A DNA stretch of 64,000 nt from a virus (taxonomy: Duplodnaviria > Caudoviricetes), in IMG/VR virus record IMGVR_UViG_3300033067_001032, positions 4,103 through 68,102 of that record; one strand, 5' to 3'. The position numbers and the translations under genes were made by a program. Within the stretch, counting starts at the first letter, position 1, and each line of letters starts with the position of its first letter. The notes beneath the pieces are model-generated. The model did not search any database. It was not told the DNA's origin and saw nothing but the letters and a program-made list of their open reading frames with translations. Shown one piece after another: positions 20,004 to 49,147 of this stretch.

Positions 20004-20166
20004 CCATCAAAATCCGGGCCTCACGCAGTATCTTAGTGAGCATTTTTGCTTCGCCTACCACCCTGTCGTAGTCGCGAATATTCTCATATCGACCGGACAC
20101 CATGTTGTTCTTAATGCCCTCGAGATCGGCTTCCATAGCCCGGATGAGCTTCTCTAATTCATGCAT
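19966..20166 (-). CDS. Hypothetical protein
   Basis: 66 aa helical ORF (Y..VVGE) between portal and GroES. Confidence 0.6.
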   Translation of the reverse strand: MHELEKLIRAMEADLEGIKNNMVSGRYENIRDYDRVVGEAKMLTKILREARILMGEREDDDDASDG

Positions 20167-22759
20167 TTGGTTTCGCCTTCGGTCGCTTCATGCCAGCCGG
20201 GAGCTTCCGGGGCGGGGTCGGTTTGGGGGCGTTTTTCTGGAGCTCGGCCGGGCTGTTTTCATTCTTGCCCAGCTTGGATGGGGTGAGACCGGCCCTGGCC
20301 TCGATGTCCCGCTGCACGTCCGGAGGGGTGTCCTTGTAGGAGATCGAAACGCTCGGCTCTTTTTTCTCGGCCCGGGCGGGCGCCTGGACATTACTGGCGG
20401 TATGGAGACGCTCCTTGATTTGGAAGCCTAGGCGAGACTCCTGGCTGGCTAGTTCCTCATCATGCATCTTCATCTTGGCGGCCAATTCCTTGTCCTTGAA
20501 GGCAAGGGTCTTCTCGGCGATCTCCCGCTTATCCTTATGGGCCTCTTCCTGAATGCGCTGCGCGTTGGCTTCCAACTGAGTGGCCGGATCGGCTTGTTGC
20601 TGCGCTTGCAGCGCTGCCTGGGCCTCGGCGATATGATCCTGTAGAAGCTGCTCTGAAGCCGCAGCGGCCAGATTGGCGATGAGGGTCTCGGTATCGCTCG
20701 GCAGCGGGTCTCCGGGCGGTGGCAACGCCACGCCCATCTTCCGCTCGATTTCGCGGCGATAGGCGAACGCCATGTGTTCTTGAATGTGAGCATGGGCGGC
20801 GCCCATGATGGCCTGAGCCATCGGGCTTTGCCCCACCATGGCCTGAAGTTTGGGGTCTTGCAGCGCGGCCATGTGGACGCGCAGGTGCGCCTCATGATCT
20901 TGCTCAATGAACGCCCTGACCGGCTTACCGGTGAGGATCGCCATACCCTCAGACACCGGATCGGTCGGTTCCAGGTCATCTGGAAGCGGCACGATCTTAT
21001 CGGCGTTGGCGATGTTCAAGACCTCAAGCATGCCGCGGTGCAAACGGGGGAGATCATAGACCTGCGGGGTTTGCGCGGCGATATTCACCGCCGCCTGATA
21101 CACGATGACCCGTTGGGCCTGGGTGGAGGAATTGGGATCGGACACCGGGATGATGTCAACGGACCCGCCAAAGTCCTCGGACCTGTTGTACTGAAGTTCC
21201 TGGTCATACTCATAGCTAGGCGGCATGTAATCGCGGATCAGCGCCTTGATCAGCCCAAGCTCTTTCTTCATCGATTGGTGGAGGCGGGCATGGACCGCAC
21301 TCATCACCCGGAGCGAGCGCTCAAGAAGAGCTAGTGTAGTGCCGACCGGAGTGTTGGCGCTGGCGTCGGCGATCTTCATATCGGCCACCGAGGCCACCCG
21401 CCTCGCCTCTTCCACGATGTTTTGCAGAAGCGCGAATGACACCTCGCTTGGCGCCCGATATGGAAGCGGGAGGAGGGCGTCGACCAACTTGCCCGATGGC
21501 ACGTCGACATCGCGGAACTCACCCGGCATCACCGGGGTTTCATCGCCCTTAACCCTGAATCCGGTGGTCTTGAATCCAGAGGGCACGTTGGAGAGGGTGC
21601 CCGCGTCGATAAGCTGACGAAGTAGAGCGGTGGCGGCATCGGCCCCACCGCCAACCAGGTGCATCACCCCAAACGCATACCAGCCCAGTCCGGGCAGATA
21701 TGAGTAGTCGACAAAGTGAATGCGTTTGATGTAGAGGGGATCGTCTTCCCGCCAGTTGCGGCGGATCGCCAACACCTTTTGCGATCCAGTCTCAATGGTG
21801 ATGATGTACGGCAAATGGCGATCGATTTCTTCATCGACGCCATCTATCTTGAGGTCAGCATGAACTTCGTAGATTTCAAACCGGTCATCGTCGATGGGTG
21901 CAGACACCCCGATGATGTCATCTTCGGCGTCGTCTGTGTCCGTGTCGAATATCTGGCTTGGCTGAAGATCAACGTCCCGATAGAAGCCGACGCTTATCAG
22001 CGTTTCGAGCGTAGATTTGAAGATGTGTTCTCGGTGAGTGTAGCGAGGGCAGGTCTCGAGATCGGAAGCGCCATACTGGATAATGAAATCATCGGCAGTC
22101 ACCATCTTACTGGATGGCCGTTTTCTGATCGGATCGAACGTTACTTTCTTGAGGACGGTGCCAGAGAGAGGAAGACGAAACAAAAGACGTTCCGTTTCCA
22201 TGCGCCACTCGGTCATGCGCTCCATGAGTTGGAAGTTGAGCTCGGCGGCGACACGCCTGCCGACTTGCATTTTTAGCGCGGTCTCCTGGCCGATGGCCTT
22301 GAACATGGCGGGCCCAGATGGGGGGCAAAGCTCCATGACCGCATTAGCCTGGAACGCCACCGCGGTCTCGGCCAGCACTGGGTGAACCACGTTTGAGCAA
22401 TTGGGCCAGGGCTCGTTCTTGGGTTCCGGGTTAATACCAAGTAGATCGAGCCCATCGCGGTATCGGCGCGACCACTCATCCCGGCTTTGGATATCCTCAT
22501 CGATCTTGGTGAGGAGGTTGCTGGCCAGCACCAGCATTGTGTGTTCGCTGAGAGCCTCGGCCAGGTTGGCGTCGAACGGGAGGCTGGCCACATCCGGCCG
22601 ATCAGCTAGTCCACGGCCAAGATCGATGGTGAGGCCGCCATCCTCATCGAGCTCTTCTTCATCGTCGAGGCCGTCGACCGGAACTACCGTTTCGCCGATT
22701 TCTTCATCATCCATCTCGTCAAATGGATCGATCGGCTGGATCGCGCGAGAAATTGCCAC
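20159..22759 (-). CDS. Portal protein
   Basis: 866 aa directly downstream of TerL; VHPVLAE, LPLSG...KKV, YAFG..HL.GG, LIDAGTLSN and SAVHARLH motifs. Confidence 0.9.
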   Translation of the reverse strand: MAISRAIQPIDPFDEMDDEEIGETVVPVDGLDDEEELDEDGGLTIDLGRGLADRPDVASLPFDANLAEALSEHTMLVLASNLLTKIDEDIQSRDEWSRRYRDGLDLLGINPEPKNEPWPNCSNVVHPVLAETAVAFQANAVMELCPPSGPAMFKAIGQETALKMQVGRRVAAELNFQLMERMTEWRMETERLLFRLPLSGTVLKKVTFDPIRKRPSSKMVTADDFIIQYGASDLETCPRYTHREHIFKSTLETLISVGFYRDVDLQPSQIFDTDTDDAEDDIIGVSAPIDDDRFEIYEVHADLKIDGVDEEIDRHLPYIITIETGSQKVLAIRRNWREDDPLYIKRIHFVDYSYLPGLGWYAFGVMHLVGGGADAATALLRQLIDAGTLSNVPSGFKTTGFRVKGDETPVMPGEFRDVDVPSGKLVDALLPLPYRAPSEVSFALLQNIVEEARRVASVADMKIADASANTPVGTTLALLERSLRVMSAVHARLHQSMKKELGLIKALIRDYMPPSYEYDQELQYNRSEDFGGSVDIIPVSDPNSSTQAQRVIVYQAAVNIAAQTPQVYDLPRLHRGMLEVLNIANADKIVPLPDDLEPTDPVSEGMAILTGKPVRAFIEQDHEAHLRVHMAALQDPKLQAMVGQSPMAQAIMGAAHAHIQEHMAFAYRREIERKMGVALPPPGDPLPSDTETLIANLAAAASEQLLQDHIAEAQAALQAQQQADPATQLEANAQRIQEEAHKDKREIAEKTLAFKDKELAAKMKMHDEELASQESRLGFQIKERLHTASNVQAPARAEKKEPSVSISYKDTPPDVQRDIEARAGLTPSKLGKNENSPAELQKNAPKPTPPRKLPAGMKRPKAKPNA

Positions 22760-22768
22760 TGGCGTCCT

Positions 22769-25276
22769 CTAGTAAAATTTGCCGCGCCGACGTTTGGTTC
22801 GGTCTTCGTCGTCTTCGTCATAATCATAGTCCATTGAGGTCTTTATGAAACCACCCTGGCGGAAACGAAGTATAGCTTGAGTTCCGGAGTCCACGAAGTC
22901 GTCATGATTCCCAGTCGGGAAAGCAGCGAATTCTTCTATTACTTCCTGGTTACTACGATTTGGCATGAAGTAAATCCACCCGGACTTGAAGATATCGCTC
23001 ACGGCATTGACTCTCACGATCTTGTCGTTGCCGCGGGATGGGGTGAATTCGGAGACTGGGATGCCCATGTGGCGCAGTTCCGCCGCAAGCGGCGCCCCGG
23101 CTGCCTTAGCTTCGATCAGCAGGCAATCGGGTTTCTTTTCGTTGTAAAGCTGCTTAGCCTTTTGTTTTAGCTCAGGAAATTCCATTCGTTCCTTGAACGA
23201 ATCAAGCAGGATGGCGGCCTTCACGGTGCGGCCATCGGCATTGGGCACGCTGAACACGCCCCAAGTGGTGCAGGCGCAGAAGTCGGAACGCTGGGTCTTC
23301 AGGTAGGCGGTGTCCCAGGACTGCAAGATGAACTCGCATTCCGGCGGCTTCTCTTGCTCCCATGGCTTCCACCACTCCCGCTTGACCATGGCCGCCTCTT
23401 CCGAGGTGGGATTCTGCTGATACACCGAATTCCAGTAGCTGGCCGGATACTCAGTCTTAATGCCAAGCCAGTATTCGAGTGGGAATCTCTCGGCGGCCAG
23501 CCATTTGCCATCTGGGAAGATGGCCGGGAAGTTGACCACATGCCATTCCCCCATCTGACCAACCTCCTTGGCGCGGGAGATAATTCGGCCGGTAAGGTCC
23601 TTTAGACCCCAGCGAGTTTGGATGAGCAGAAGTTTGGTGCGGGGCGTGAGGCGCTGACGTGGACCGGCGAGATACCACTCATAAGTCTTCTCGAACACCT
23701 CCGGCTTATAGGCGGCCAGCGCCCCATCGCCCTCGGTGTGAGGGTCGTCGATAACCATGAGATCGGCGTTGCGGCCCACCATTGTGCCGCCCACGCCAAC
23801 GGCGTAATACTCGCCGCCATGGTTGGTCTTCCAATGCCCCTTCGCTTTGTTATCGGGTTTCAGCGCAATTCCGGGGAATACATCCCGATAGTGATCGCTG
23901 TCGACGAGATCGCGGACTTTTTCACCCCACTCAACCGAGAACGAGGCGGTGTGCGTAGCCTGGATGATGGCTTGCTTGGGATTCTTACCGAGGAAATACC
24001 CTGGGAGAAATAGAGAAGAGGCCCGGCTGTTGTGTGTGGGGATGAGTCCGCGTCCCGCTAAAAACAAATTATCAGGGGAGCCAACCTCGATGCATGCAGT
24101 GTCCCTGCTACATACCTGGTTTGTTCTAATATAACGCATGACCGGTTTGAGCGGCGAGCGACAGCGTTTGGCTTTATGTGGAATTGAAGCCGCCCCATTA
24201 CCGATCCAGACCACACGGTAATGCACGCCATGGTCTTTACCTGAAACGATGACACGACGTTGATTGACGAATGGCTTCATCCCCAGCGACAGCACCAGTA
24301 AAACCACGGCGTCTATGAGGTCTTTATTCTTATTGTTGAAGGTGTTTTTACCGTCCTTAGTAACGTTGCCATCGGTGTCCATCAGCCCGTGCAGAAGGGC
24401 TAAGCGTTGTTCTTCCGAACCCAACAGATACTGAACTGGAACGTGTTTACGCTCAAATACGCCGATAGCTCTAAGCGCCTTCGGCAACCCCAGAATACTA
24501 AACCGTTGAGCCTTAGCTTTCTGTAGCCTGGTATCCCATCCCTCAGCATGGATACGCCCACGAATGTGAGGTTGATGATCAGGATGGCAGGTAATCTCAC
24601 CGGATCGACGAGAGCCGTCACCAAGCCACACCCCCAAGGTGTAAGGGGAGACTAGAAGATGCCGCGGCTTTAACTTTAGGACTGGCTGTGGCGGAAGTGC
24701 TGGGCGGCGTTTTTCACTGGTCGAAAGGAAACGATCAGCTACCCAGGCGGTGGTGCGGTTCTTAAAAACATGCCTGCGTTTACGCTCAATGCTGAGCGAC
24801 CACTCGTGCTCCTCATCGGCGATTACCCGACCCCCGTCATCGGTCTCCACCTCCCAACATTTACGTTCCTTGAATACCGGGGATTTCCATGTGACGGGAT
24901 ATGGTTTTCCGTCGGCGCCAAAGACCTGATCGCCAACATCAATATCCGCCATGGTCTTAAAGCCGGACGGGGTTAATATCTCAGTGTCCAGGCTGAGTGC
25001 CTTTCCAACTCTTGGCGCCATGTTGATGATGACGCGATTGAGCTCTCCGCGGAGCATGGCGTCGAAGATTTGCCCAAGCTTTCGCCAGTGGGCGGTGTCG
25101 ATGTAGGAATCCGACTCCGATGCATCCCAGCAATATTTAACAAAATCGATGTAGCGGGCGCGGGCGCCCTCAATCGAAGAGGCCCGGTCCCTTAGCTGCA
25201 TGAGCTTTAGGATTTCGCGCTGTTCGGCGAGCGGCAGGCGCTCGATCAGCTTTAGCTCTTTCGGCCCGAATTCCAT
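22769..25276 (-). CDS. terL: Terminase large subunit, intein-containing
   Basis: Walker A INMAPRVGK|S split by an intein, Walker B VIDDP, nuclease QSWDTA, IEAKAAG and HDDFVDS. Confidence 0.93.
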   Translation of the reverse strand: MEFGPKELKLIERLPLAEQREILKLMQLRDRASSIEGARARYIDFVKYCWDASESDSYIDTAHWRKLGQIFDAMLRGELNRVIINMAPRVGKALSLDTEILTPSGFKTMADIDVGDQVFGADGKPYPVTWKSPVFKERKCWEVETDDGGRVIADEEHEWSLSIERKRRHVFKNRTTAWVADRFLSTSEKRRPALPPQPVLKLKPRHLLVSPYTLGVWLGDGSRRSGEITCHPDHQPHIRGRIHAEGWDTRLQKAKAQRFSILGLPKALRAIGVFERKHVPVQYLLGSEEQRLALLHGLMDTDGNVTKDGKNTFNNKNKDLIDAVVLLVLSLGMKPFVNQRRVIVSGKDHGVHYRVVWIGNGAASIPHKAKRCRSPLKPVMRYIRTNQVCSRDTACIEVGSPDNLFLAGRGLIPTHNSRASSLFLPGYFLGKNPKQAIIQATHTASFSVEWGEKVRDLVDSDHYRDVFPGIALKPDNKAKGHWKTNHGGEYYAVGVGGTMVGRNADLMVIDDPHTEGDGALAAYKPEVFEKTYEWYLAGPRQRLTPRTKLLLIQTRWGLKDLTGRIISRAKEVGQMGEWHVVNFPAIFPDGKWLAAERFPLEYWLGIKTEYPASYWNSVYQQNPTSEEAAMVKREWWKPWEQEKPPECEFILQSWDTAYLKTQRSDFCACTTWGVFSVPNADGRTVKAAILLDSFKERMEFPELKQKAKQLYNEKKPDCLLIEAKAAGAPLAAELRHMGIPVSEFTPSRGNDKIVRVNAVSDIFKSGWIYFMPNRSNQEVIEEFAAFPTGNHDDFVDSGTQAILRFRQGGFIKTSMDYDYDEDDEDRTKRRRGKFY
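24029..25000 (-). mobile_element. Intein (324 aa) with LAGLIDADG homing endonuclease, Ala1/WCT class-3 type
   Basis: Starts ALSLDTEILTP and ends LIPTHN|S. Block B ADEEHEW, block F TACIEV; endonuclease motifs LGVWLGDG and LHGLMDTDG. Confidence 0.9.
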
Positions 25277-30133: not shown

Positions 30134-30415
30134 GTTGGTTGTGCTTTCATGCAGGCCTTTCGGCCCCGATACAAGCTACCTAACCCCAGGACGGATGAAC
30201 TCCAAGTTATTTTCCCGTAAGGGGGGAGTGGACCCCGGCGATGCCGCGGTAAGAGAGGAAACGTGAATTTTTCTCCAGGAATTTTTCGGCCTGGATGGGA
30301 CCCAGGAAAACGACCACAAACCTGGTAGGCTTATGAGTGGAATAGTAATCACCTATGGGACCCACGCCCCGTTCTCTTAAAGCCGGGGTGGCGTACTGTA
30401 CCCAGCACGTCTGCC

Positions 30416-30430
30416 TTAATTTCGCCTTAA
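30416..30430 (+). promoter_or_regulatory. CtrA-binding box
   Basis: TTAA-tttcgcc-TTAA matches the TTAA-N7-TTAA consensus, about 60 nt upstream of the first plus-strand early gene. Confidence 0.7.
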
Positions 30431-30492
30431 TTGTGTGCGATCATCTTCACATGGTCCGGGTCAATCCCGACCCGGTCCATTGGAGTAATCCG

Positions 30493-31035
30493 ATGACCAC
30501 AGCAACACCCAAAGCCAAGCTTAACTCAGCAATGCAGGCCGTGGCCGCCAAGGCCAAGGCCGCGCGCATCGCCGCCACCGACGTAATCAACGTCGCCTAT
30601 GACGGCATCCAAGCAGCGGAGTGGGAGGAGGAGCGGCGCGAGAGCGCTATGTCCGCTTTGTTGCGCATGATCCGTTCTACTTTCGCCAGGGACCACAAGA
30701 AACTGGACGGCAAGCGGGCGCTGATTACGCAGCACGCCAAGCAGCTTCCCTCCGACATCGTGAAGGCTTGCAATGCCCTCGACCGTGACGCGGATATGAA
30801 GGCCGAGGAGAGCGTCATTGCGAAGGAGGAGAAGGCCAGGGAGATTGCGCGCAAAGAGGCTAAGAAAGCGGAGCAAGAGCGCATCCGCCAGGCCGCGCAA
30901 GGTAACGACGATGCCGACGCCCCGCCACCAAGCCGCAAGGCCGTGAAGGACGCCAAGAAGGCCATTGCCGAAGCCGCTAAGCGCGGGACACTAACCCTCA
31001 AAGACGCCCAGGCCGCTATCGCCAGGGCCGCGTAG
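30493..31035 (+). CDS. Ala/Lys-rich early protein
   Basis: Start MTTATPKAK with GGAG SD; helical, charged. Confidence 0.7.
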   Translation: MTTATPKAKLNSAMQAVAAKAKAARIAATDVINVAYDGIQAAEWEEERRESAMSALLRMIRSTFARDHKKLDGKRALITQHAKQLPSDIVKACNALDRDADMKAEESVIAKEEKAREIARKEAKKAEQERIRQAAQGNDDADAPPPSRKAVKDAKKAIAEAAKRGTLTLKDAQAAIARAA

Positions 31036-31048
31036 GACCACAAAGGAG

Positions 31049-31085
31049 AGCCCGCCGCACCGCAAGGTGTTGGCGGGCTTTCTGT
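31049..31085 (+). terminator. Rho-independent terminator
   Basis: agcccgcc-gcacc-GCAA-ggtgt-tggcgggct followed by ttct gtttc. Confidence 0.65.
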
Positions 31086-31255
31086 TTCTAGAGACTTGCC
31101 AAGTCTCTGCGACGGCCGGACGCCGTGGGTTGATGCCCCGTAACGGGATTAACCCATCGTTTTGAGGCCATCGCCACTGTTACTCGCCTGTAACATCAGT
31201 TACAGGAGCGTAGCGACAACTCGCCTGTAACAAGGGCGAGTGGAAAGGCAATCCA

Positions 31256-31447
31256 ATGACCAACGCACGTTACTCTAAGCGCCAGTATGTCGGCGACTAC
31301 ATCATTGCTTATGATTGGGACACCAATCGGTTCGTGGTAATGGACCTCGACGACCGCGTTGTCGACATCGGCTACCTGACGCACGCGGAAGCGTATCAGG
31401 GTGCTGTAGATATTGCCGATGCTGCCAAGGCGATGGTGGCGTTATAA
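31256..31447 (+). CDS. Hypothetical protein
   Basis: 63 aa with GGAAAGG SD. Confidence 0.6.
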   Translation: MTNARYSKRQYVGDYIIAYDWDTNRFVVMDLDDRVVDIGYLTHAEAYQGAVDIADAAKAMVAL

Positions 31448-31565
31448 ATGCCGAGGGGTCAGTCCGAGAGGGCTGGCCCCTTTGTATTATGTAGCCCTAT
31501 GGAATGTGCGGACCCGCCTTCGGCGGATAGACGCGCGGCCTGGGCTATTTCGGAGGAGAAACCAC

Positions 31566-31751
31566 ATGGAAAGCCTAGTGTTTGCCTACCTAATCGGCCT
31601 GGTCGCATGGATGTTTACCTGCGGCCTGCTCAACGAAAGAGAAAGGGCGCCCCTCGGCATCATCTGGCCGGTAGCCCTGCCGATTGTTGCTATCGTCTTC
31701 GCCTGCCGAGTGCTTGTGATCCTCGGCGAGTATGTTGGCGGTCATAGATAG
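31566..31751 (+). CDS. Small two-TM membrane protein
   Basis: MESLVFAYLIGLVAWMFTC...IIWPVALPIVAIVFAC; GGAGGAG SD. Confidence 0.65.
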   Translation: MESLVFAYLIGLVAWMFTCGLLNERERAPLGIIWPVALPIVAIVFACRVLVILGEYVGGHR

Positions 31752-31818
31752 AGAGAGGCCCTCGGCGAAAGCCGGGGGCCATTTTGGTATGGGGCATCCC
31801 GCCCCAGGAGCACTAACA

Positions 31819-32229
31819 ATGTTCACACTAACCATGCTGGAAATCCTGATCGCCTGCCGCAAGGCGCTCGATCAAGGCATCTTGCAAGCCCAACAAGGTC
31901 AATCCTTCATCGGCTGTTACTACCGCGCCGGTGGGGGGATTGAACGTCGCGGTTGGGGTGCGGATAAACCCCGCATCGTGTGCGCTATCGGCGCCGCTCT
32001 TACCGATGAAATGTACGATGAGATACGCGGCGGTGACAAGATCCTTAGCCCGCTACACTGGGGCGAGTATTTTAATTCCACAGAGGAATTAGAAGACGCC
32101 CAAATCCTACAGAAAGTCCACGATGATTGGGCGACGGCTTCGCCTGCATCAAAAGATTCCAAGAGGGACGCCTTTTATACCCTCCTAGGGAATCTCGAAA
32201 CCGCCTACTGCATCACTCAGCCAGCATGA
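31819..32229 (+). CDS. Hypothetical protein
   Basis: AGGAG SD after a cassette; CAIGAALTD motif. Confidence 0.65.
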   Translation: MFTLTMLEILIACRKALDQGILQAQQGQSFIGCYYRAGGGIERRGWGADKPRIVCAIGAALTDEMYDEIRGGDKILSPLHWGEYFNSTEELEDAQILQKVHDDWATASPASKDSKRDAFYTLLGNLETAYCITQPA

Positions 32230-32297
32230 GAGGAAGGCCCCGGCACAATCCGGGGCCTTCTTTTTATGAGGCGAAAGCCTCACTGGAGACTAAAGCC

Positions 32298-32411
32298 ATG
32301 AGCGATCTATTGCCCTATGCCCCGCTGTTCATTGGCATCGGCTTGCTTGGTTATCCTATTGGCCCACGTGTGGCTGATTGGCTTATCAATAAATGGTGGC
32401 CCATGCCATGA
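32298..32411 (+). CDS. 37-aa membrane peptide
   Basis: MSDLLPYAPLFIGIGLLGYPIGPRVADWLINKWWPMP*; GGAG SD. Confidence 0.55.
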   Translation: MSDLLPYAPLFIGIGLLGYPIGPRVADWLINKWWPMP

Positions 32412-32485
32412 TCCTGTTATGGGCTATAGGGGCCATATGGATTGTCGCTACCGCGACCTGCGCGATTTTCGGCAAACCTAAATGA
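32408..32485 (+). CDS. 25-aa membrane peptide
   Basis: MILLWAIGAIWIVATATCAIFGKPK*; ATGA overlap with the upstream gene; ends at the next cassette. Confidence 0.5.
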   Translation: MILLWAIGAIWIVATATCAIFGKPK

Positions 32486-32553
32486 GAGAGAGGCCCTCGG
32501 CGAAAGCTGGGGGCTTCTTTTTATGAGGCGGAAGCCTCACGGGAGTAACGCGC

Positions 32554-32640
32554 ATGACCGCTTATGACTTGACCGCCCTTAGCGGCTGGGTTGGCCTCTT
32601 TGCTTTCATTCTGCTGCTGCGATTGCTGATGCGGTCCTAA
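32554..32640 (+). CDS. 28-aa membrane peptide
   Basis: MTAYDLTALSGWVGLFAFILLLRLLMRS*; GGGAG SD inside the cassette. Confidence 0.55.
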   Translation: MTAYDLTALSGWVGLFAFILLLRLLMRS

Positions 32641-32738
32641 AAAAGCCGCAATCGGCCATCATACTAAAAATGGATGGAGCCTCCGGTGAAAGCCGGGGGC
32701 TCTTTCCATGGGAGCGAAAGCTCCCAGGAGTAACATCC

Positions 32739-33983
32739 ATGACCACAAATGAATGGAATGTACCAGAACCCTTCGACGCACATCCATGGGACTATTTCAC
32801 CCCATCGCCGGGGCCGATTAGTTTCTCGGCGAGACGGGCGATAATCAACCACACCATGGACTTCATGCAACGGCTATCGGATGATTTGAGTCAATCCGTA
32901 CCATCCGTCGTTAGGTCGCTGAACTCTATATCGTCGATCATCAAGCTCGAAAGAGCCTATGAGCTATTCGCGAAAGAGAGTGGCGAGTCGATAGTCTGTT
33001 GCAATTACTGCGGCCAGCGTGTAGCCGATTCTTTCATCCTAAGCGATGAAAACAGCTGCAATTATTTTTGTCCGCATTGCGTCTATGAAAACTCCCACTC
33101 TCACTCTTGGAGATATCGGACCACGACGTTCCATGCACCCGAGGACGACGACGACTGCGACGGTCTCTTAGACTGTTCATCGTCGCCGATTGATGAAATC
33201 GGTGTCGAATATCTCAGCGGCCCAGGCGAACGGGTAACTGAGAGCACTCGGTTCTTCGGATGCGAGATCGAGTTCGTGTGTGAAGATAGGTCTGGATACA
33301 ACGACATCATTGAAACACACTATACTAAACAAGTCGGCATCTACAAATCAGATGGATCGCTGCCCTACCTAGGGGCGGAGTTCTGCACGCTGCCGATGAC
33401 GAGATGGTCTGTAACCCACGATCTGAAACCCGTTTTGACCTACATGGTCGATAAGGGGGCGCGCGCGTGGAACAGGTCAATGTGCGGATTGCACATTCAT
33501 GTGAGCAGGGCTTCGGCGCCCTGGTCCACATGGGGAAAGACGGATCGCTTCTTCTTAAACGAAGCTAACCAAGCCTTTCTCACTAAGGTAGCCGGGCGTG
33601 AGCCCAATAGCTACTGCGGCCGGAGAGGGGTTACCGATCCGGCTACGGTCAAAGTCAAGATGGCTAAACAAAAAGCCGAGAATGGCTATGACCGCTATGT
33701 CGCCCTGAATTTCTCGACCAACAAGCCAACCGTTGAGTTTAGAATGTTCAGGGGTAACGTGGCCCATCAAGGCGTGATGCGAGCGGTGGAATTTTGCGAC
33801 GCCATCATCGAGTTCGCAGGCACGCAATCGAACACGGCGCCAATGCACTACCGGGAATTTTTGGGATGGCTGAAAGGCTACTCCAAGGTCTATCCCAATT
33901 TGGCGCGGCTCTTGTTCGGAGTAAGGGTGAGCCGAAAAGCAATCGCCGAGGATTTGGTGGAAACACTGGAGAACGCGGCTTAA
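32739..33983 (+). CDS. Amidoligase (COOH-NH2 ligase type 2 family)
   Basis: FGCEIEF, SDGSL, GAEFCT, CGLHIHVS, RYVALNF and TVEFRMFRG motifs; N-terminal CxxC/CxxC. Confidence 0.85.
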   Translation: MTTNEWNVPEPFDAHPWDYFTPSPGPISFSARRAIINHTMDFMQRLSDDLSQSVPSVVRSLNSISSIIKLERAYELFAKESGESIVCCNYCGQRVADSFILSDENSCNYFCPHCVYENSHSHSWRYRTTTFHAPEDDDDCDGLLDCSSSPIDEIGVEYLSGPGERVTESTRFFGCEIEFVCEDRSGYNDIIETHYTKQVGIYKSDGSLPYLGAEFCTLPMTRWSVTHDLKPVLTYMVDKGARAWNRSMCGLHIHVSRASAPWSTWGKTDRFFLNEANQAFLTKVAGREPNSYCGRRGVTDPATVKVKMAKQKAENGYDRYVALNFSTNKPTVEFRMFRGNVAHQGVMRAVEFCDAIIEFAGTQSNTAPMHYREFLGWLKGYSKVYPNLARLLFGVRVSRKAIAEDLVETLENAA

Positions 33984-34074
33984 GCTGAGAAGAGGGCGCT
34001 GGCGAAAGCTGGCGCCCTCTTTTTATGGGAGGCAGGCAATCCCGCCAAGCCGCCCGCACCAAGGATAACAACCA

Positions 34075-35043
34075 ATGTGCTTAATCACCATCGCGCCGAA
34101 AGGCGTTGAAACTCTCGACTGGAAAACTCTCTCATATTCGGCCAGCCAAAACGACGACGGCTTCGGCCTCGCCTGGTATGACGGCTCGATGTGGATTGCT
34201 CGAAAGAGCATCCGGCAAAAGACCTTCCAGAAGGTGATAAACAAGGTGCCGAATGGGGCGCCGCTGATTATCCATCAGCGGTTCGCCACTCACGGCCCGG
34301 TCAATATCGAGAACACCCACCCATTCAACCTGGGTGACGAGGCTCTGCTGTTCCACAACGGAGTCATCAGCGGCACCCGAGCGGACTCTCGGGCGCTTAT
34401 CGAAAAGAAGCCGGGAGGCGCATCAGTCTATGCGAAAGCAACCCTCTCGGACACGCGAGCCTACGTCGAAGACGAACTACACCCCCTAGTGGTGGCCGCT
34501 GGCGTAGGCTGGTTGGCCCATGAAAAGGGAGTTTCGGCGGTCGAGGCCCGCGTCGGTTATAGCAACGTCATCGCCATAGCCGTGAACGGCAATCCTAAGC
34601 CCATCATCATCAACGAATGGGCCGGGGATTGGGTTGGAGACCTATTCTACTCCAACAGCTACTCCAGGCCCAGCTATGGGCTAGGCTATTCCACCGGAAT
34701 CAACGCCGGAACCGAGTGGGAGGATCAAACCTCCTACAAGGGCGGATATAAGCACGGAGCGCGCTATGGCTACGCCTCCTACGATGAACTCACCTATGAA
34801 GAATGGGCGAAGAAAGTCGATGAGGACGCCATGGACGGCGTAGATTGGTCGGATGACGTGAACTATATGTCCGATCAAGAATACGAAGCCAAGAAGGTCC
34901 GCTACGACGCCGCTGTGCTTGATGAAAGTCAAGATGAGTGGGTCAATGTGGACAAGATGAATGACGACGAATGGGAACAATGGATGGTCGAGCACGGCTA
35001 TTCACCCACTCCGCGCCGTCTCACGTATCGCAAAAGGTCCTGA
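34075..35043 (+). CDS. Class II glutamine amidotransferase
   Basis: Cys2 nucleophile (MCLI), NDDGFG, HQRFATHG, NTHPF, HNGV, SDT. Confidence 0.88.
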   Translation: MCLITIAPKGVETLDWKTLSYSASQNDDGFGLAWYDGSMWIARKSIRQKTFQKVINKVPNGAPLIIHQRFATHGPVNIENTHPFNLGDEALLFHNGVISGTRADSRALIEKKPGGASVYAKATLSDTRAYVEDELHPLVVAAGVGWLAHEKGVSAVEARVGYSNVIAIAVNGNPKPIIINEWAGDWVGDLFYSNSYSRPSYGLGYSTGINAGTEWEDQTSYKGGYKHGARYGYASYDELTYEEWAKKVDEDAMDGVDWSDDVNYMSDQEYEAKKVRYDAAVLDESQDEWVNVDKMNDDEWEQWMVEHGYSPTPRRLTYRKRS

Positions 35044-35125
35044 TAGGTAGGGGGTCGCGCGCAAGCGCGGCCCCCTATTTATGTGGGGTAATCCCGCCCT
35101 ACAAAAACCAAAATGGAGGTTCACC

Positions 35126-35242
35126 ATGAACCGTACTCCGATGTCGATGCCGCCATCTACTGTTGGCATCATCCTGATCACGGTCACTACCGCAATTCTG
35201 GCGTTCTTTGTGGCCCTGGTCGGCATCGTCCTCTTTGGATAA
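35126..35242 (+). CDS. 38-aa membrane peptide
   Basis: MNRTPMSMPPSTVGIILITVTTAILAFFVALVGIVLFG*; GGAGG SD. Confidence 0.6.
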   Translation: MNRTPMSMPPSTVGIILITVTTAILAFFVALVGIVLFG

Positions 35243-35248
35243 AAAGCC

Positions 35249-35587
35249 ATGAACGAATTTGAATGTGAAGAAGCCGCCGCCAAGCAATATCGGCGGAATG
35301 TTGGGAAATCAATCTTCACAAGTTATGTGATCGCCTTCGACGAAGCTGGCGAAACGCATGATGTGTATTTCGATGAACCCCGATGCTTCAAGGTTATGGG
35401 AACCAGCGCCGATGATCTATTCGGCTGGAACCATGACCGCACCACGCTAAAGTCGCTTTGGTGGCTTAAACCAATCGGCCAGCGCCCGCCAGAACTTGAG
35501 CAACACCAAACTCTCGTGATGGTCCCGGCGGGTGAATACACGCTCGGCCAGGCCGAGGGAGTAAAGCCCCCTTGGTTTGTGTTCTAA
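35249..35587 (+). CDS. Hypothetical protein
   Basis: 112 aa ending just before a cassette. Confidence 0.6.
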   Translation: MNEFECEEAAAKQYRRNVGKSIFTSYVIAFDEAGETHDVYFDEPRCFKVMGTSADDLFGWNHDRTTLKSLWWLKPIGQRPPELEQHQTLVMVPAGEYTLGQAEGVKPPWFVF

Positions 35588-35672
35588 GATCGAGGCCTCG
35601 GCGTAAGCCGGGGCCTCTTTTTATGAGGGCGCCGCAATCCCGTGGCGCTTCCTCTTTTAAGGACTACAGAAA

Positions 35673-35810
35673 ATGACCAAGACCACACTGATCGACGTGA
35701 AGACGTTGGCATTTCTTAGCCGCATCGGCGCTGTGCGTGTTGGCCGGTCTAACCGCTGGACAGTCCAGCGTGGTGACAGGTTGATGAGCCTTCACATCGT
35801 GGAGGGTTGA
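35673..35810 (+). CDS. 45-aa protein sharing its N-terminus with 36227-36490
   Basis: MTKTTLIDVKTLAFLSRIGA...; AAGGA SD. Confidence 0.55.
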   Translation: MTKTTLIDVKTLAFLSRIGAVRVGRSNRWTVQRGDRLMSLHIVEG

Positions 35811-35813
35811 GCG

Positions 35814-36065
35814 ATGCGCTTTTGGATCGAAGCCCGGTTTAAACCGGAACACTTTATGGACAGCCGCCGGAGCCGGGAAATCGAGGCTACGGATCACGCT
35901 GACGCCCAGCGGCAGGCGGAGGCTCTCGCTCGGGAAATGTCCGAGGAGCATGAGCGAGATTGCGTCGGGCGGAGCGAAATGCTCCCGGTCGCCGGTTTTG
36001 AGGAAACCGAGGAAGAACCCTATGACGGCCCGTCCGAGGCCGAAATCGACCCGTGGCGGACCTGA
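35814..36065 (+). CDS. Acidic hypothetical protein
   Basis: 83 aa; GGAGGG SD. Confidence 0.6.
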   Translation: MRFWIEARFKPEHFMDSRRSREIEATDHADAQRQAEALAREMSEEHERDCVGRSEMLPVAGFEETEEEPYDGPSEAEIDPWRT

Positions 36066-36226
36066 ATGTCCGCCCTCCCAACGGAAAGTTAGAGGTTCGG
36101 CGCTATTGTGGCGCATGTCTTTAACGATCCATGAAACTGAAGGGGAGGGCGCTGGCGAAAGCTGGCGCCCTCTTTTTATGAGGGCGCCGCAATCCCGTGG
36201 CGCTTCTCTTTTAAGGACTACAGAAA

Positions 36227-36490
36227 ATGACCAAGACCACACTGATCGACGTGAAGACGCTGACCCTGCTTAGCAAGTTGGGCGCGGCGTATAAGTCCTC
36301 GATGGATGGGCACATCGACGCCTACACCCAGGCCGCCGATGACGCTCAAATGATCCTCGAAGACATCGGGCGCTCCCCATTAGGGGGGCCGGTTGTTGAG
36401 GTCCAAACTCAACACCTAACACTCGTGCCTTCACTCGACGGTGCAAACTCGGCGACATCTTCGACCGGCGAGCTACCGCAGGCGAACTAA
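36227..36490 (+). CDS. Hypothetical protein
   Basis: MTKTTLIDVKTLTLLSKLGA...; between two cassettes. Confidence 0.65.
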   Translation: MTKTTLIDVKTLTLLSKLGAAYKSSMDGHIDAYTQAADDAQMILEDIGRSPLGGPVVEVQTQHLTLVPSLDGANSATSSTGELPQAN

Positions 36491-36556
36491 CTGACAGGCC
36501 CCGGCTTGCGCCGGGGCCTCTTTTTATGGGACACACAAGTCCCGGAGTAACCACAA

Positions 36557-36928
36557 ATGACAAACACAGAAAACAGCCTGGATTTATCCGGCTTCAATGG
36601 ATCGGAGAAAATCTACCGTCACCCCCTGATGCCGGTGAAATACACTGAGGGCGTTCAATATCTCGCCGAAAAGGCGGGCGCCTACTGGTTGCTTGATAAA
36701 GTCGCCTCGCTGCAACTGGAGCCTAAAGTAAAGGCCGAGGAGTTTCAGGCATGGAAGCTTGAGCTTTCTCACCCAGTACCAGGTGCAACGCGCCCCGCAT
36801 ACCTAACATGCGAGGACGGTAATCTTAAGGAAGTCTATCGAGAAATGATCGACTATACCGATTTCCCACTACCGGAAGTCACTATCTGGCTCATAGATGG
36901 CGTTATGCTGTTGCCGAGCGAATACTAA
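36557..36928 (+). CDS. DUF6876-like protein
   Basis: YTEGVQYLAEKAGAYWLLD...YTDFPL...VMLLPSEY. Confidence 0.75.
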   Translation: MTNTENSLDLSGFNGSEKIYRHPLMPVKYTEGVQYLAEKAGAYWLLDKVASLQLEPKVKAEEFQAWKLELSHPVPGATRPAYLTCEDGNLKEVYREMIDYTDFPLPEVTIWLIDGVMLLPSEY

Positions 36929-37005
36929 GATCAGGGCCGCGCAAAAGCGCGGCCCTCTTTTTATGAGGGCCAATCCCGGCCTTCATTTCCCTCAGAAGAG
37001 GAGGC

Positions 37006-37362
37006 GTGCATTGCGCGCGCTACTTAAAACAAATGACTTCACAAAGAGCGGCTCTAGCCGTGGTGAGCGGCCATCTATCGCACGCGGTAACTGGTCGTAA
37101 TAGGTGTCTGATCCGATATGGTCGCAACCTCGTTGGGACCCTCTATGGGTATCAGATAGTCGTTAAGGAGGGTAACAAGATCACCCTTCGTCACCATGGA
37201 CACCGGACCGCAACCACCAGGAAGGCGATGCTTGAGTTTCTAACCCTGCTTGGAGTAGAAGACGCTAGTGTTAGCTTTGCTAAGGGTGCGTTTGTGGTGG
37301 CGGTTGGCGACAAAACCTACCATGCCACCGACGCCGGTCACATAGAGGTGCAATACCCGTGA
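37006..37362 (+). CDS. Hypothetical protein
   Basis: GAGGAGG SD after the last cassette; exact start uncertain. Confidence 0.55.
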   Translation: MHCARYLKQMTSQRAALAVVSGHLSHAVTGRNRCLIRYGRNLVGTLYGYQIVVKEGNKITLRHHGHRTATTRKAMLEFLTLLGVEDASVSFAKGAFVVAVGDKTYHATDAGHIEVQYP

Positions 37363-37577
37363 AGGAAAAATACACCACCCTCTTTCCATGCCATCGAGTG
37401 AAGCCGGGGCTATGGGCTCAGTTCATCCAACGAAGGGACGAACTGGACCATGGCCCGGCCGATCAAGACGCATGGACCTGTACGGCGGTCAGGGCCTGGT
37501 TGGCCCTGCACGAAAGAGGACTGGAACCTCAGCACATAGCCCCATTCAAATACTCCCGGAAGGGAGCTACTGAATAG
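37359..37577 (+). CDS. Hypothetical protein
   Basis: GTGA-coupled 72 aa ORF ending before a terminator. Confidence 0.5.
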   Translation: MKEKYTTLFPCHRVKPGLWAQFIQRRDELDHGPADQDAWTCTAVRAWLALHERGLEPQHIAPFKYSRKGATE

Positions 37578-37597: not shown

Positions 37598-37632
37598 CCC
37601 CCAGGGCTTTCACGGCCCTGGGGGATTTTTTT
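37598..37632 (+). terminator. Rho-independent terminator
   Basis: cccccagggc-tttcacg-gccctggggg followed by attttttt. Confidence 0.8.
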
Positions 37633-37854
37633 GTCCCGCTCGGTGCAATTTTGGTGGGATTGTGGGATAAACCGGACCATCGTCCCGTTCGGGGTATGGG
37701 AGCGAGGCCGGGTTACGATCCCGGTGAGTCCTGGGTATGAACCAGGATGGCCTCCAAGGCTCCTCGCTAATAACCCTTATATGCCGGTCTGGCTGTGGCG
37801 TAAACTGGCGCGCGATGCTATTGATTGCCAAATCATCTAAAGGGGGATTTTGGA

Positions 37855-38239: not shown

Positions 38240-38270
38240 GAGGCCGCCAGCAATGGCGGCCTCTTTTTTT
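38240..38270 (+). terminator. Rho-independent terminator
   Basis: gaggccgcca-GCAA-tggcggcctc-ttttttt. Confidence 0.85.
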
Positions 38271-39235: not shown

Positions 39236-41071
39236 TCATACATCATCGTTGTCATCCTGCCAATGCCTAACATGCTCCTGGTGGCTGGCTAACGGGGCGC
39301 TGTAGCGCCCGGTGCGGGGGTTGTAATCCAGGCTGGCCACCCCCCTTTGCCCATGCCATTTGTGGCGCACCTTCCACACCACCAATTCCGACTCGCAGGG
39401 CGGCGGGCCGTAGCCATCGGTCTCCACCTTCGGCCGATACATGGTGATGCCGAAGTCGGTGATAGCGTTCCATTGACCGCCGCCTGAGATATGGAAGCCG
39501 GTCGGTGGGAAACGTCGAGAGCCAGCGGGCAGTTGCCGTGGGTGGGCCACCAGGAAGCAATGCACGTCATGGGTTTGCACGAAGCGCTTGAGCTTGATGA
39601 GCAGGCGCCTGATCCATTCCACGTCGTTATCTACGCCTTGGGGCTTGTCGATGTAGTTGTAGGGATCGATCACGCAAATCTTAGCGCCGTTGTTGGCGAT
39701 AGCTTCGCTCATGCGGGCCAATATGGAATCCAGGCTGGCTTCCTGGGTATAGCTCTGCGGCAGGAATAGGAAGTTCTCATCGACCCACCTGAGCTCCTCG
39801 ATCATGGCCTCGGGGGTCATGCGCGTAGCCCCGGTGAGGCTAGAGAAGAAGGCTGTTCCCGACTTGATCTCCATGAGCCTAGCGATATGGACCTCTGGAT
39901 TATTTTCAGGCGACCAGATCGCCGCCTTAAGGCCATGATCGCGCGCTAGAGCCACCAGGATGTTATCGAGGAACTGCGATTTGCCATCGTTGGGCCATCC
40001 GGTTATCACAGTGAGAGCCCCAAGCGGCACGGAGTAAAGCTTATGAACGCCAGCACCCAGTCCGATATCGAAACCCCTGGAAATCTCCCCACGGTAGAGT
40101 TGCTGCAACCGATCGAGGAACAGGTTAGCGTTGGCTACAAGTTGCCCAACACTCTTACGAACCCGTTCAGACTTAGCCAAAACCTCATTAGAGATTTTTT
40201 CTATGGCCAGCTTGGCGCTAATGGGCCCGTTGCTATCGAGATAGGCCGCTATGTCTTTTTCTCCTTCAAAAGCCGCAACCACGGCGTTGGGCAATTGGTG
40301 GCTGAGCCGTTCCGCACATTTTCTTCCGGGCTCATCGTTGTCGACAGCGATTGCGACCCCGGCGAAGTTGGCGGCTAGGGCCACCAATTCAACCAGCCAT
40401 TCGCTATGGGCGCCCACATTGGCGCCGTTAGGAACCGAAACCACAGCCTCACGACCGAGGCTTTTCATCACCAGGGCGTCGATCTCGCCTTCCACAATAA
40501 ACAGGACATGGTTTTCCGGGTCCTTAGGTAAAAGCCAAGACAAGTAGCAGGTATTGAAATGACCCTCGGAAGTGAACTCCTTCTCAAGCGTGCGGTACTT
40601 ACACGCGAGTACCTCTCCAGACGTAGAGAAGTAGGGAAATGCGATACAATCCAACTCACCCACCTCTCGGAAATACTTGGTTGCGGTGTGGATAAAGCAT
40701 TTGTTAACTACATGAATCCCTATACCACGGAGGGCGAGGTAGTCCTCATGCTCTCGAGACAGCGACTTGAAATCATCGGCGTCAATTCGGATTGGTGGTT
40801 TCGCTCTATTGATGGGGACAACCTCGGCTGATGGCATGTAATTTTTCCTTTTGATCACTGGGGTTGGCCAGGGGTCGGCGCCATCCGGCACGGCGCCGGA
40901 TGCACCGCAATGGTGGCAGTTGAATAGGATCAGATCGCCCTGGCGGGTGAGGTTAAGAACTGGCGCGCTCTGGTTGTGTGTGCGTCTTAGGTGGCTACAG
41001 TCGGGGCATGGGGTCCGATGATGGTCGCGGGACCCTATCAGGTCTCGCACAACCGCCGGATCGAGACCCAT
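39236..41071 (-). CDS. Primase-helicase (T7 gp4/Twinkle-like)
   Basis: Zn ribbon CPDC/CHHC, TOPRIM EGEIDAL and DNDEPG, Walker A GWPNDGKS, IDPYNY, VAHPR, DFGITMYR. Confidence 0.9.
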   Translation of the reverse strand: MGLDPAVVRDLIGSRDHHRTPCPDCSHLRRTHNQSAPVLNLTRQGDLILFNCHHCGASGAVPDGADPWPTPVIKRKNYMPSAEVVPINRAKPPIRIDADDFKSLSREHEDYLALRGIGIHVVNKCFIHTATKYFREVGELDCIAFPYFSTSGEVLACKYRTLEKEFTSEGHFNTCYLSWLLPKDPENHVLFIVEGEIDALVMKSLGREAVVSVPNGANVGAHSEWLVELVALAANFAGVAIAVDNDEPGRKCAERLSHQLPNAVVAAFEGEKDIAAYLDSNGPISAKLAIEKISNEVLAKSERVRKSVGQLVANANLFLDRLQQLYRGEISRGFDIGLGAGVHKLYSVPLGALTVITGWPNDGKSQFLDNILVALARDHGLKAAIWSPENNPEVHIARLMEIKSGTAFFSSLTGATRMTPEAMIEELRWVDENFLFLPQSYTQEASLDSILARMSEAIANNGAKICVIDPYNYIDKPQGVDNDVEWIRRLLIKLKRFVQTHDVHCFLVAHPRQLPAGSRRFPPTGFHISGGGQWNAITDFGITMYRPKVETDGYGPPPCESELVVWKVRHKWHGQRGVASLDYNPRTGRYSAPLASHQEHVRHWQDDNDDV

Positions 41072-48732: not shown

Positions 48733-49147
48733 ACCAATGGCGTTTGAGGCGCTCAAGATCGCGCTCAAGCAAGACCGTGGCGGCCATGTGCTAACCCTGG
48801 TCATTCATCCAGATGAAACCCCAGACCAGCTATGGCGCGATCCGGTTGGCAAGCGCTACGGGGTGGCGCTGGTGGCCCTCGATGAAGAAGGCGAAGCCTT
48901 CAACGATGAGGCCGAGGGTGAACGTGTTTTCAAGATGCACGGCGCCAGGTGCCGTGACGCCGGGTTTCAGTTGTTCATGCTTGGACCCAATGACGCCACC
49001 GAATCCAAGAAGGATCGGGAGGAGTCGTGCCGGGATGCCGTTAAAAAATCTTTAGGTATTGCATCTTCCACGGACATCAGGGATAAACCCAAAGTCAGAT
49101 TGCAATTCCTAGAGTTATTGAAAACCCATGAGCAAGACCGCCCCTGA
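48722..49147 (+). CDS. Hypothetical protein
   Basis: 141 aa; ATGA-coupled. Confidence 0.6.
   Translation: MNGKPMAFEALKIALKQDRGGHVLTLVIHPDETPDQLWRDPVGKRYGVALVALDEEGEAFNDEAEGERVFKMHGARCRDAGFQLFMLGPNDATESKKDREESCRDAVKKSLGIASSTDIRDKPKVRLQFLELLKTHEQDRP

Follow-up and report, generated by a model that had tools for sequence, protein, structure and literature searches.

A clade-specific, repeated two-hairpin RNA cassette between the early genes of a tailed phage

Phage early regions show the fastest turnover of host-takeover and accessory genes, and how these genes are expressed and exchanged is known for few model phages. In the early region of phage T7, each RNase III site (R0.3 to R1.3) consists of one hairpin, about 20 bp in length, that lacks a U tract and whose internal loop directs a single cut. 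The nut site of phage lambda occurs once per operon and is composed of boxA followed by boxB, a hairpin with a 5-bp stem and a GNRA-like pentaloop that is near-identical between copies; its N protein has an arginine-rich motif. In T4-like phages, the promoter early stem-loop (PeSL) elements are short composite repeats with a terminator-like stem-loop, located between small early ORFan genes in a hyperplastic region (Arbiol 2010, PMC2839356; Comeau 2014, PMC4122927). Terminators masked by ribosomes (Li et al. 2016, PMC4824070), of which the pyrBI attenuator is an example, and the intercistronic hairpins of the Rhodobacter puf operon (PMC6238624 and references therein) provide two further points of comparison. 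Here, we report a repeated element of about 55 nt found in a 64,000-nt stretch of DNA of an uncultured phage (hereafter, the window; 57.7% G+C), which corresponds to bases 4103-68102 of the 68,102-bp viral record IMGVR_UViG_3300033067_001032 (Caudoviricetes). The element is a real, clade-specific and previously undescribed RNA cassette, and lies on the plus strand of an early block of about 17 small genes (30493-37577).

Each cassette contains, in this order, a first hairpin (H1), a U-rich linker ending in (A)UG, a second hairpin (H2), a Shine-Dalgarno (SD) sequence and the start codon of the next gene. Reading and folding of the intergenic regions revealed ten full H1-linker-H2 cassettes, and 12 copies when an H2-only copy (30452-30479) and a variant (31449-31548) are included, as had been noticed in a preliminary description of the same DNA, which counted about 12 two-hairpin copies. 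According to that description, nearly every early gene was preceded by one; in fact this is true of 11 of the approximately 17 genes, while those without a cassette overlap or almost touch their upstream neighbour and are called translationally coupled to it. The block has 13 gaps between genes that exceed 25 nt, and ten of them hold a cassette. Every copy folds far better than its dinucleotide shuffles (z from -3.95 to -6.4).

The tail of H1 reads C(T)CTTTTTAT followed by (A)TG. The linker CTCTTTTTATG is exact in five copies and has at most two mismatches in ten, and its motif is matched 21 times in the whole window against 9.1 +/- 2.9 times in shuffled sequence. H2 has a stem of 4-14 bp and variable sequence. 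In the ten full cassettes the stem has 4-11 pairs, and the loop is AATCCC (five copies), ATCCC (one), a GNRA tetraloop (three) or ACACAA (one). The 7-mer AATCCCG is not over-represented in the window (13 occurrences, 13.6 expected); the non-random part is its clustering in hairpin loops before early genes. The AAUCCC hexaloop is an RNA motif without prior description. A candidate mini-open reading frame starting at the AUG of the linker was considered and rejected: although it terminates at the start codon of the next gene in two cassettes, its frame is not kept elsewhere. In about a third of the cassettes of the relatives described below, this AUG is replaced by UUG, CUG, AUA or UUA.

Several observations concern the strand on which the structure acts. 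Of 36 elements, 33 have a more stable fold on the plus strand than on the complementary one (mean -37.6 versus -32.2 kcal/mol; paired t-test, p = 2e-9), with 81 G.U pairs in the folds of the plus strand and 15 in those of the complement. Contigs of the same phage from other samples differ from the window at two positions only in the interval 30300-30814, and both differences (30470 A>G and 30472 C>T) affect stem positions of the first H2, where each turns a Watson-Crick pair into a G.U pair. Because of the G.U bias and of the two wobble substitutions, we conclude that the cassette structure acts as RNA on the sense strand. Covariation was evident in both hairpins. In a loop-anchored alignment of H1, 100% of the cells were paired, all nine pairs showed double changes, and none of 500 shuffles was as good; in H2, 95.8% were paired, and five of five pairs showed double changes. 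No shuffled or slid control came close for either hairpin. As the sets were picked by their hairpins, these percentages of pairing are inflated, while the diversity of the stems is unaffected. The earlier remark that the stems vary yet keep pairing is supported.

Relatives of the phage were reached through the amidoligase gene (32739-33983) of the early block. The metagenomic contigs L001 (56 kb), L002 (16 kb) and L004-L006 share with the window the synteny of terminase block, divergent region and early block, and contain the same cassettes. Nine cassettes were used to build a covariance model (R1), with which 521 kb of fetched loci were then searched. Strong matches were confined to the sense strand of early blocks, in the window, L001, L002, L004 and the short contig L011. 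In the window there were ten matches with E <= 8e-6, all on the plus strand between 31758 and 36982; the remaining matches were far weaker: on the minus strand, the H1 palindromes were echoed five times (best E 8e-5), and on the plus strand the terminator at 38240 and the variant at 31449 were matched weakly. Neither Caulobacter phage RW nor any of about 30 less closely related amidoligase loci gave a strong match to R1. The exact cassette pattern gave no match in IMG/VR, and in 185,579 bacterial and archaeal species genomes it gave 36 single matches in unrelated taxa, about 39 being estimated by chance, none of which fits R1. Rfam returned no family at the gathering score, ribozymes included; its sub-threshold matches were generic terminator-like 3' ends of small RNAs. 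The covariance-model search suggested in the preliminary description has thus placed the cassette in the window and in four related metagenomic phages, with no match in Rfam or in bacterial genomes. Searches for relatives of the primase/helicase in IMG/VR and of the amidoligase in bacterial genomes found none.

Two other phages have early-region hairpins of their own. L007, an amidoligase phage (52% GC) of a more distant clade, carries a different two-hairpin cassette (L007, 2165-5477) of the form H1-CATG-H2-AATGGAG, most copies of which are without a U tract, so the two-hairpin layout predates the terminator function. The early region of Caulobacter phage RW (L045:3431-7864) contains repeats other than the cassette of the window: palindromes of the form TGCAAC-N6-GTTGCA, and hairpins (GCGCC-GAACA-GGCGC) that precede several SD sequences by about 25 nt. 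This cultured phage may serve as a tractable model for early-gene leader hairpins.

Along the block, the copies are arranged as follows, all on the plus strand. The first H2 (30452-30479) has no H1 before it; its core CCGGGTC-AATCCC-GACCCGG (30456-30475, loop at 30463; z -3.95) is followed by the SD sequence GGAG and by the start codon of the first gene, gA, at 30493. After gA there is a strong terminator without H2 (31045-31085). The variant cassette (31449-31548) is composed of an H1 with a GAGA loop, TTGTATTATG, and a second structure, larger and branched, that encloses a UUCG hairpin; an SD sequence follows. The cassette before gD (31753-31806; R1 E 4e-7) comprises H1 at 31757-31780 (GAAA loop), the linker ATTTTGGTA and H2 at 31790-31806, with the loop ATCCC at 31796. 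Before gE (32226-32282; R1 E 2e-8, z -6.4), H1 is an 18-bp stem reaching over the stop codon, with the loop CACAAT, and H2 is GAGGC-GAAA-GCCTC (32273). Before gF (32485-32539), a 17-bp H1 (GAAA) precedes H2 TGAGGC-GGAA-GCCTCA (32530). The amidoligase gene is preceded (32676-32728) by H1 (GAAA), the linker TCTTTCCA and H2 TGGGAGC-GAAA-GCTCCCA (32716), and the gene for a class II glutamine amidotransferase (33986-34062) by an 18-bp H1 (GAAA) and a composite H2 with the inner hairpin GGC-AATCCC-GCC at 34035-34046 (loop at 34038).

In the second half of the block, the cassette before gI (35043-35102; R1 E 3e-13) has an 18-bp H1 (GCAA) and H2 GTGGGGT-AATCCC-GCCCTAC (loop at 35090). The one before gK (35592-35652) has an 11-bp H1 (GTAA), the linker TTTTTAT and H2 GGGCGCCGC-AATCCC-GTGGCGCTT (loop at 35636). 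A chimeric cassette, the parts of which join in CCTCTTTTTATG, precedes gM (36140-36206; loop AATCCC at 36191). Before gN (36496-36544; R1 E 5e-11) there are a 10-bp H1 (TTGC) and H2 TGGGAC-ACACAA-GTCCCG (36533), and before gO (36933-36986; R1 E 2e-14), a gene for which a single homologue was found, a 10-bp H1 (AAAA) and H2 ATGAGGGCC-AATCCC-GGCCTTCAT (loop at 36972). The block ends with a terminator without H2 (37598-37631), the stem of which begins 20 nt after the stop codon of gP, and a second terminator without H2 (38240-38270) lies far from any stop codon.

By its anatomy, as read from the sequence, H1 is a canonical intrinsic terminator. Its stems contain 9-14 perfect GC-rich base pairs, extendable to 18, most with a GNRA tetraloop, and nine of the ten are followed by TTTTTAT or a close variant, the exception being 31757-31780 with ATTTTGG. 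On the plus strand of the 64 kb there are 15 perfect-stem terminator-like sites, 12 of which (11 block terminators and one H2) are located in the interval 31.7-38.3 kb; the minus strand has one. In the preliminary description terminators needing antitermination had been listed among four hypotheses, without a choice between them; the terminator part of that hypothesis is in line with the anatomy of H1, and the interpretation given there is on the whole partly supported. Not noticed at that time were the proximity of H1 to the stop codon, the place of the first H2 at the predicted primary 5' end, and the pairing of the U tract with an upstream purine tract in several cassettes.

The position of H1 relative to the preceding gene is as a rule fixed, its stem beginning 0-8 nt past the stop codon or overlapping it. 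For the core of H1, this distance has a median of 8 nt and does not exceed 12 nt in 27 of 35 cassettes; in eight of the ten window cassettes the extended stem starts between 3 nt before and 5 nt after the end of the stop codon, and some stems include the stop codon itself. Since H1 begins so close to the stop codon, ribosomes should mask it. In E. coli, moving the stop codon to 5 bp before the lambda terminator tR2 lowered its efficiency from about 90% to less than 10%, and about 30 bp were needed for full efficiency, tR2 being nearly fully repressed when only a few base pairs past a translated gene (Li et al. 2016, PMC4824070). A loss of this size, due to the ribosome, applies to a terminator about 5-10 bp past a stop codon. 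Applying this distance rule, the internal H1 copies would be leaky whenever the upstream open reading frame (ORF) is translated in step with transcription. By the same rule, the block-ending terminators at 37598 and 38240 should be efficient.

These features are best accommodated, in our opinion, if the cassettes act as RNA punctuation, that is, as translation-gated terminators which also provide 3' caps, combined with a 5' leader hairpin; we assign this reading a probability of about 0.4. One long early operon would be transcribed by the host RNA polymerase from a single sigma-70-type promoter, and the cassettes would punctuate its sense RNA. A ribosome finishing the upstream gene would cover the 5' arm of H1, so that the polymerase reads on, and termination at H1 would occur only when translation lags. 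Once folded, H1 would act as a fully paired 3' cap for the upstream cistron. H2 would most likely shield the 5' side of each cistron, whether the linker is cut or not, and most likely also hold the SD sequence clear of the U tract and of the pyrimidine-rich, anti-SD-like 3' arm of H1, while the AAUCC(C) loop would be read by a putative partner. The role of H2 is the least certain part of this reading. Finally, the short conserved sequences at the gene boundaries would double as crossover points for gene shuffling.

Several points weigh against this proposal. The cassettes at 32676 and 36140 sit 36-80 nt from the previous stop codon. Ribosome gating has been measured in E. coli and on one terminator, and some of the upstream ORFs are shorter than 100 bp, a length that may be too short for ribosomes to close the gap to the polymerase (PMC4824070). 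For five cassettes, folding predicts pairing of the U tract with a purine tract located upstream, around the stop codon, so that 0-2 unpaired nucleotides are left between H1 and H2; for this reason, cleavage was kept out of the core claim, and the idea of RNase E cutting is weakened. Three H2 copies have GNRA loops and some cassettes of the relatives are without H2, so the AAUCCC loop is not obligatory and is dispensable at some genes. In addition, the conservation of the loop could partly stem from gene conversion among the copies, and the inflated pairing percentages mentioned above should be borne in mind.

The linker could instead be a processing site. Host RNase E, G or III, or a putative phage endoribonuclease, would cut at or beside the linker and release monocistronic mRNAs capped by H1 at the 3' end and by H2 at the 5' end, comparable to the action of RNase III on the T7 early RNA. 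The linker is indeed the most AU-rich stretch between GC-rich hairpins, and RNase E of high-GC alphaproteobacteria prefers single-stranded AU-rich sites; in the puf operon, intercistronic hairpins set the stability of the segments (PMC6238624). A cut before the AUG would also give the internal cistrons the 5' end of the predicted primary transcript, and the clade of L007 keeps the order H1-CAUG-H2-SD without a U tract. These arguments are countered by the five cassettes with a paired U tract and 0-2 free nucleotides, by the dimensions of H1 (a continuous stem of 10-18 bp) and H2 (5-11 bp), unlike those of T7-type RNase III sites, by the lack of any match to a ribozyme or known RNA family in Rfam, and by the fact that no nuclease was found among the conserved early genes. 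On balance, we consider processing possible but unlikely.

A further folding possibility was observed in the same region. Pairing is also feasible between the 3' arm of H1 and the 5' arm of H2, with the U tract in between, as in GGCGCCCTC-TTTTTAT-GAGGGCGCC (36163-36189) and in other cassettes. This middle hairpin is slightly more stable within cassettes than in chimeras (-7.7 versus -6.9 kcal/mol; permutation P = 0.007), an effect which is driven by a few copies and may be explained by duplication. It may represent a second folding state, adopted while a ribosome holds the 5' arm of H1.

A single site among the promoter-scan matches is placed upstream of the first gene. This predicted early promoter, P_E (30416-30451, plus strand), has a -35 box TTAATT (30416-30421), a 17-nt spacer and a -10 box GATCAT (30439-30444), with the predicted +1 at A30451 of an AUG. 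The register is the same in the relatives (TTGACT-17-GATTAT in L001, TTGACA-17-TCTAAT in L004 and TCAATT-17-GATACT in L002): in the four phages, the seventh base past the -10 box is the A of AUG (AGUG in L001), 1-5 nt before the first H2. As the promoter register places the predicted +1 at this distance, the first H2 is predicted to be a 5'-terminal hairpin. A TTAA-N7-TTAA sequence, of the type of the CtrA box, was observed at 30416-30430, overlapping the predicted -35 box of P_E; the homologous promoters of L001 and L004 have the consensus TTGAC(T/A) at that place and no TTAA-N7-TTAA box.

H2 is also closely tied to translation signals. In 20 of 35 cassettes its end and the start codon are 12-18 nt apart; most copies end 0-3 nt ahead of the SD sequence, and the internal ones directly follow the U tract. 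Its loop is far more conserved than its stems, with A at position 1 in 20 of 20 copies and A at position 2 in 18 of 20, followed by UCC. The conserved loop, set against variable stems, is the reason for proposing a putative loop partner.

In contrast to the first gene, no internal gene appears to have a promoter. The consensus scan found no promoter-like site on the plus strand from 29.5 to 42 kb, and a looser scan gave 51 sites against 58 +/- 8 in shuffled sequence, none of which is consistently placed in the cassette. Transcription of each gene from its own cassette promoter, either of the terminator-promoter type known from PeSLs or from hairpin promoters as in phage N4, is therefore disfavoured, given also the recognisable first promoter and the absence of a polymerase match. 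Such an arrangement would have a precedent in T4-like phages, where PeSLs are likewise stem-loop cassettes between small variable early genes and mediate their shuffling (PMC2839356, PMC4122927), and the giant 2889-aa virion protein of the phage could in principle hide a polymerase. Nevertheless, no cassette has a -35/-10 pair although the first promoter of the phage is recognisable, and H2 fills the space from the U tract to the SD sequence. Searches of the large ORFs, including the giant protein, against Pfam, PHROGs and the Protein Data Bank (PDB) found no RNA polymerase, though a very divergent enzyme could escape them. Moreover, the pairing favours the sense, non-template strand (G.U pairs, 81 versus 15), while an N4-type promoter needs a hairpin in the template strand, together with a single-subunit RNA polymerase of the virion or phage. 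Cassette promoters are for these reasons very improbable, and the suggestion that the AAUCCC hairpin might be a hairpin promoter finds no backing in the data.

A different role for H2 would be antitermination by relay. In this scheme H2 is nut-like, a boxB-like hairpin after a boxA-like CUCUUU, and a phage factor, most plausibly gA, makes the polymerase pass the next H1, the site being repeated in order to reload the factor. At least 11 canonical terminators stand in series within one operon that lacks internal promoters, and the succession of promoter, hairpin, first gene and strong terminator parallels the PL-nutL-N-tL1 layout of lambda. The loop is kept while the stems are variable. gA is the sole early protein in all four cassette phages; it is conserved in position, basic (pI 9.7, with a basic N-terminus) and poorly structured, with a predicted local distance difference test score of 0.63 in the ESM Atlas. 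Searches with gA in Pfam, PHROGs and the ESM Atlas gave no function, and no recognisable arginine-rich motif is conserved across the four phages. The candidate boxA, CUCUUUUUA, which was compared with boxA of the GCUCUUUA type, precedes the internal H2 copies but overlaps the H1 stem and U tract, its CUC falling inside the stem, and it is absent before the first H2. The scheme has also to contend with the three GNRA-loop copies of H2 and the cassettes without H2, with the fact that known N systems need one site per operon and not one per gene, and with two close spacings that it leaves unexplained, between stop codon and H1 and between H2 and the SD sequence. All in all, we consider relay antitermination possible but unlikely.

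It is conceivable, although quite unlikely, that the AAUCC-loop hairpin is a repeated loading site for a phage factor, which could be gA acting like lambda N and reloaded gene by gene, or a hairpin-guided endoribonuclease. If so, the early operon would be a chain of terminator-gated modules released stepwise, a form of relay antitermination or processing that has been described for no phage. A candidate kissing partner of the loop, the complementary GGGAUU (31146-31151, in the structured region past gA), was dropped, being buried in a stable stem and not conserved in L001 or L004.

The gene content between the cassettes differs among relatives, as expected of the recombination handles proposed in the preliminary description. 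Nine of the 18 early ORFs of the window have no homologue in the other three phages, and shared genes are found at different positions. The early genes with homologues in two or all of these other phages are limited to gA, the amidoligase/amidotransferase pair, a membrane peptide of 38 aa and the final two genes of the block. One cassette is visibly recombinant: in the chimera at 36140-36206, H1 is identical to 33992-34027, and H2 with its leader is identical to 35614-35651, the two parts being joined within CCTCTTTTTATG. In addition, a 376-nt module (35704-36079), made up of the end of gK and the 83-aa gL, occurs in other metagenomes with zero differences and with different flanks, at a depth of 39x versus about 3x. 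A direct repeat of 90 nt (35615-35705 and 36170-36260) borders the module in the window; it is composed of the H2 of the cassette, the leader and the first 10 codons, and points to a recent insertion or exchange. Because of the mosaic gene content and the visible chimera, we take the cassettes to mark recombination junctions.

It could be argued from the mosaic block, the single chimeric cassette, the module with other flanks in metagenomes and a tyrosine recombinase gene at 49128-50003 that the cassettes are mainly DNA-level recombination sites, similar to integron attC, or selfish repeats, and that any role as RNA is incidental. Such an origin would hardly account for the strong G.U bias of the sense strand, the fixed position relative to stop codon and SD sequence, or the canonical terminator anatomy. 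In addition, the junction of the foreign module lies inside coding sequence and not at the core of a cassette, and no conserved GTTRRRY-type core was recognised on reading the sequence. We regard this explanation as very improbable; junction-marking is probably a consequence of the similarity among copies and not the primary function.

The stretch following gA deserves a separate mention. A perfect palindrome, AGAGACTTGCCAAGTCTCT (31090-31108, plus strand), conserved in the relatives, comes after the gA terminator and is followed by a structured region with the repeated motif GTTACTCGC / CTCGCCTGTAAC (31090-31241 in all). L001, L002 and L004 have both the palindrome and GTTACTC in the corresponding position. 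The region 31090-31241 may act on the early operon as an operator, a roadblock or a second control point.

As to the contents of the block, the Amidoligase_2 and class II glutamine amidotransferase genes (32739-35043) form a pair kept in all the relatives found (at least 12 contigs), which anchors an otherwise mosaic early block. Five tiny hydrophobic ORFs of 28-61 aa (31566-32640 and 35126-35242) resemble single-pass membrane peptides, and every one is either served by a cassette of its own or coupled to a neighbouring gene; the 38-aa peptide is also present in L001 and L004, at a different position.

In the remainder of the window, structural genes occupy the minus strand (1-30133) and include those for the portal (20159-22759) and for an intein-containing large terminase (22769-25276); a divergent control region (30134-30492) separates them from the early block. 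A gene for tRNA-Met (CAT; 37697-37768, minus strand) lies between the early block and the primase/helicase gene (39236-41071, minus strand), opposite the terminator at the end of the early operon. Beyond the block there are also recombination genes and a C5 methyltransferase gene, the tyrosine recombinase gene mentioned above being integrase-like. The gene for the giant protein (55313-63982, minus strand; 2889 aa) runs across the record ends, and would measure 2928 codons from stop to stop if the record were circularised. Weak intein-like matches at residues 2216-2299 and a helix-turn-helix-like stretch near residue 1430 were observed in it, and a polymerase domain was not detected. A megablast search against 50,697 phage records gave no match to the window. 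The portal is 34-38% identical to those of Pelagibacter, Roseobacter and Caulobacter phages (34% for Caulobacter phage RW) and one relative, L007, encodes a GcrA homologue; on these grounds, the host is probably an alphaproteobacterium, likely one living in river or sea water.

In about 55 nt, the cassette would combine a ribosome-switchable terminator, a conserved leader hairpin next to the ribosome-binding site and a crossover point for shuffling. If gating is confirmed, it would represent a natural repeated design coupling the transcription of each next gene to the translation of the previous one, and could provide a compact insulator part for alphaproteobacterial synthetic biology.

Although it can be likened to PeSLs, T7 RNase III sites and nut sites, the cassette does not have the defining features of any of them. 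With the T7 sites it shares the use of structured RNA signals between early genes of a host-transcribed polycistronic RNA, leaving cistrons with a protective 3' hairpin; it differs in having a canonical terminator and a short second hairpin, and cleavage is here only hypothesised. As with lambda nut, a small hairpin is found just past the early promoter, followed by a small basic first gene and a terminator, in an operon rich in intrinsic terminators, but H2 is repeated before about 11 genes, has an AAUCCC or variable loop and variable stems, and is accompanied by no N-like motif that we could find. Ribosome-masked terminators likewise place a hairpin a few nucleotides past a stop codon, yet the known examples are individual engineered constructs or attenuators (Li et al. 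2016, PMC4824070), and a repetition across a phage operon is not known. The puf operon, alphaproteobacterial like the probable host, also relies on intercistronic hairpins and AU-rich cut sites to set the fate of its segments; its hairpins are few and non-repeated, have no conserved loop and do not provide a terminator at each boundary (PMC6238624). The PeSLs of T4-like phages are likewise recombination-prone copies with a gene content between them that differs among relatives (PMC2839356, PMC4122927). However, in PeSLs the stem-loop is followed by a sigma-70-type early promoter, with about 17 nt between the -35 and -10 boxes, whereas the cassettes of the window have none; its place is taken by a second hairpin, which has a conserved hexaloop and adjoins the SD sequence.

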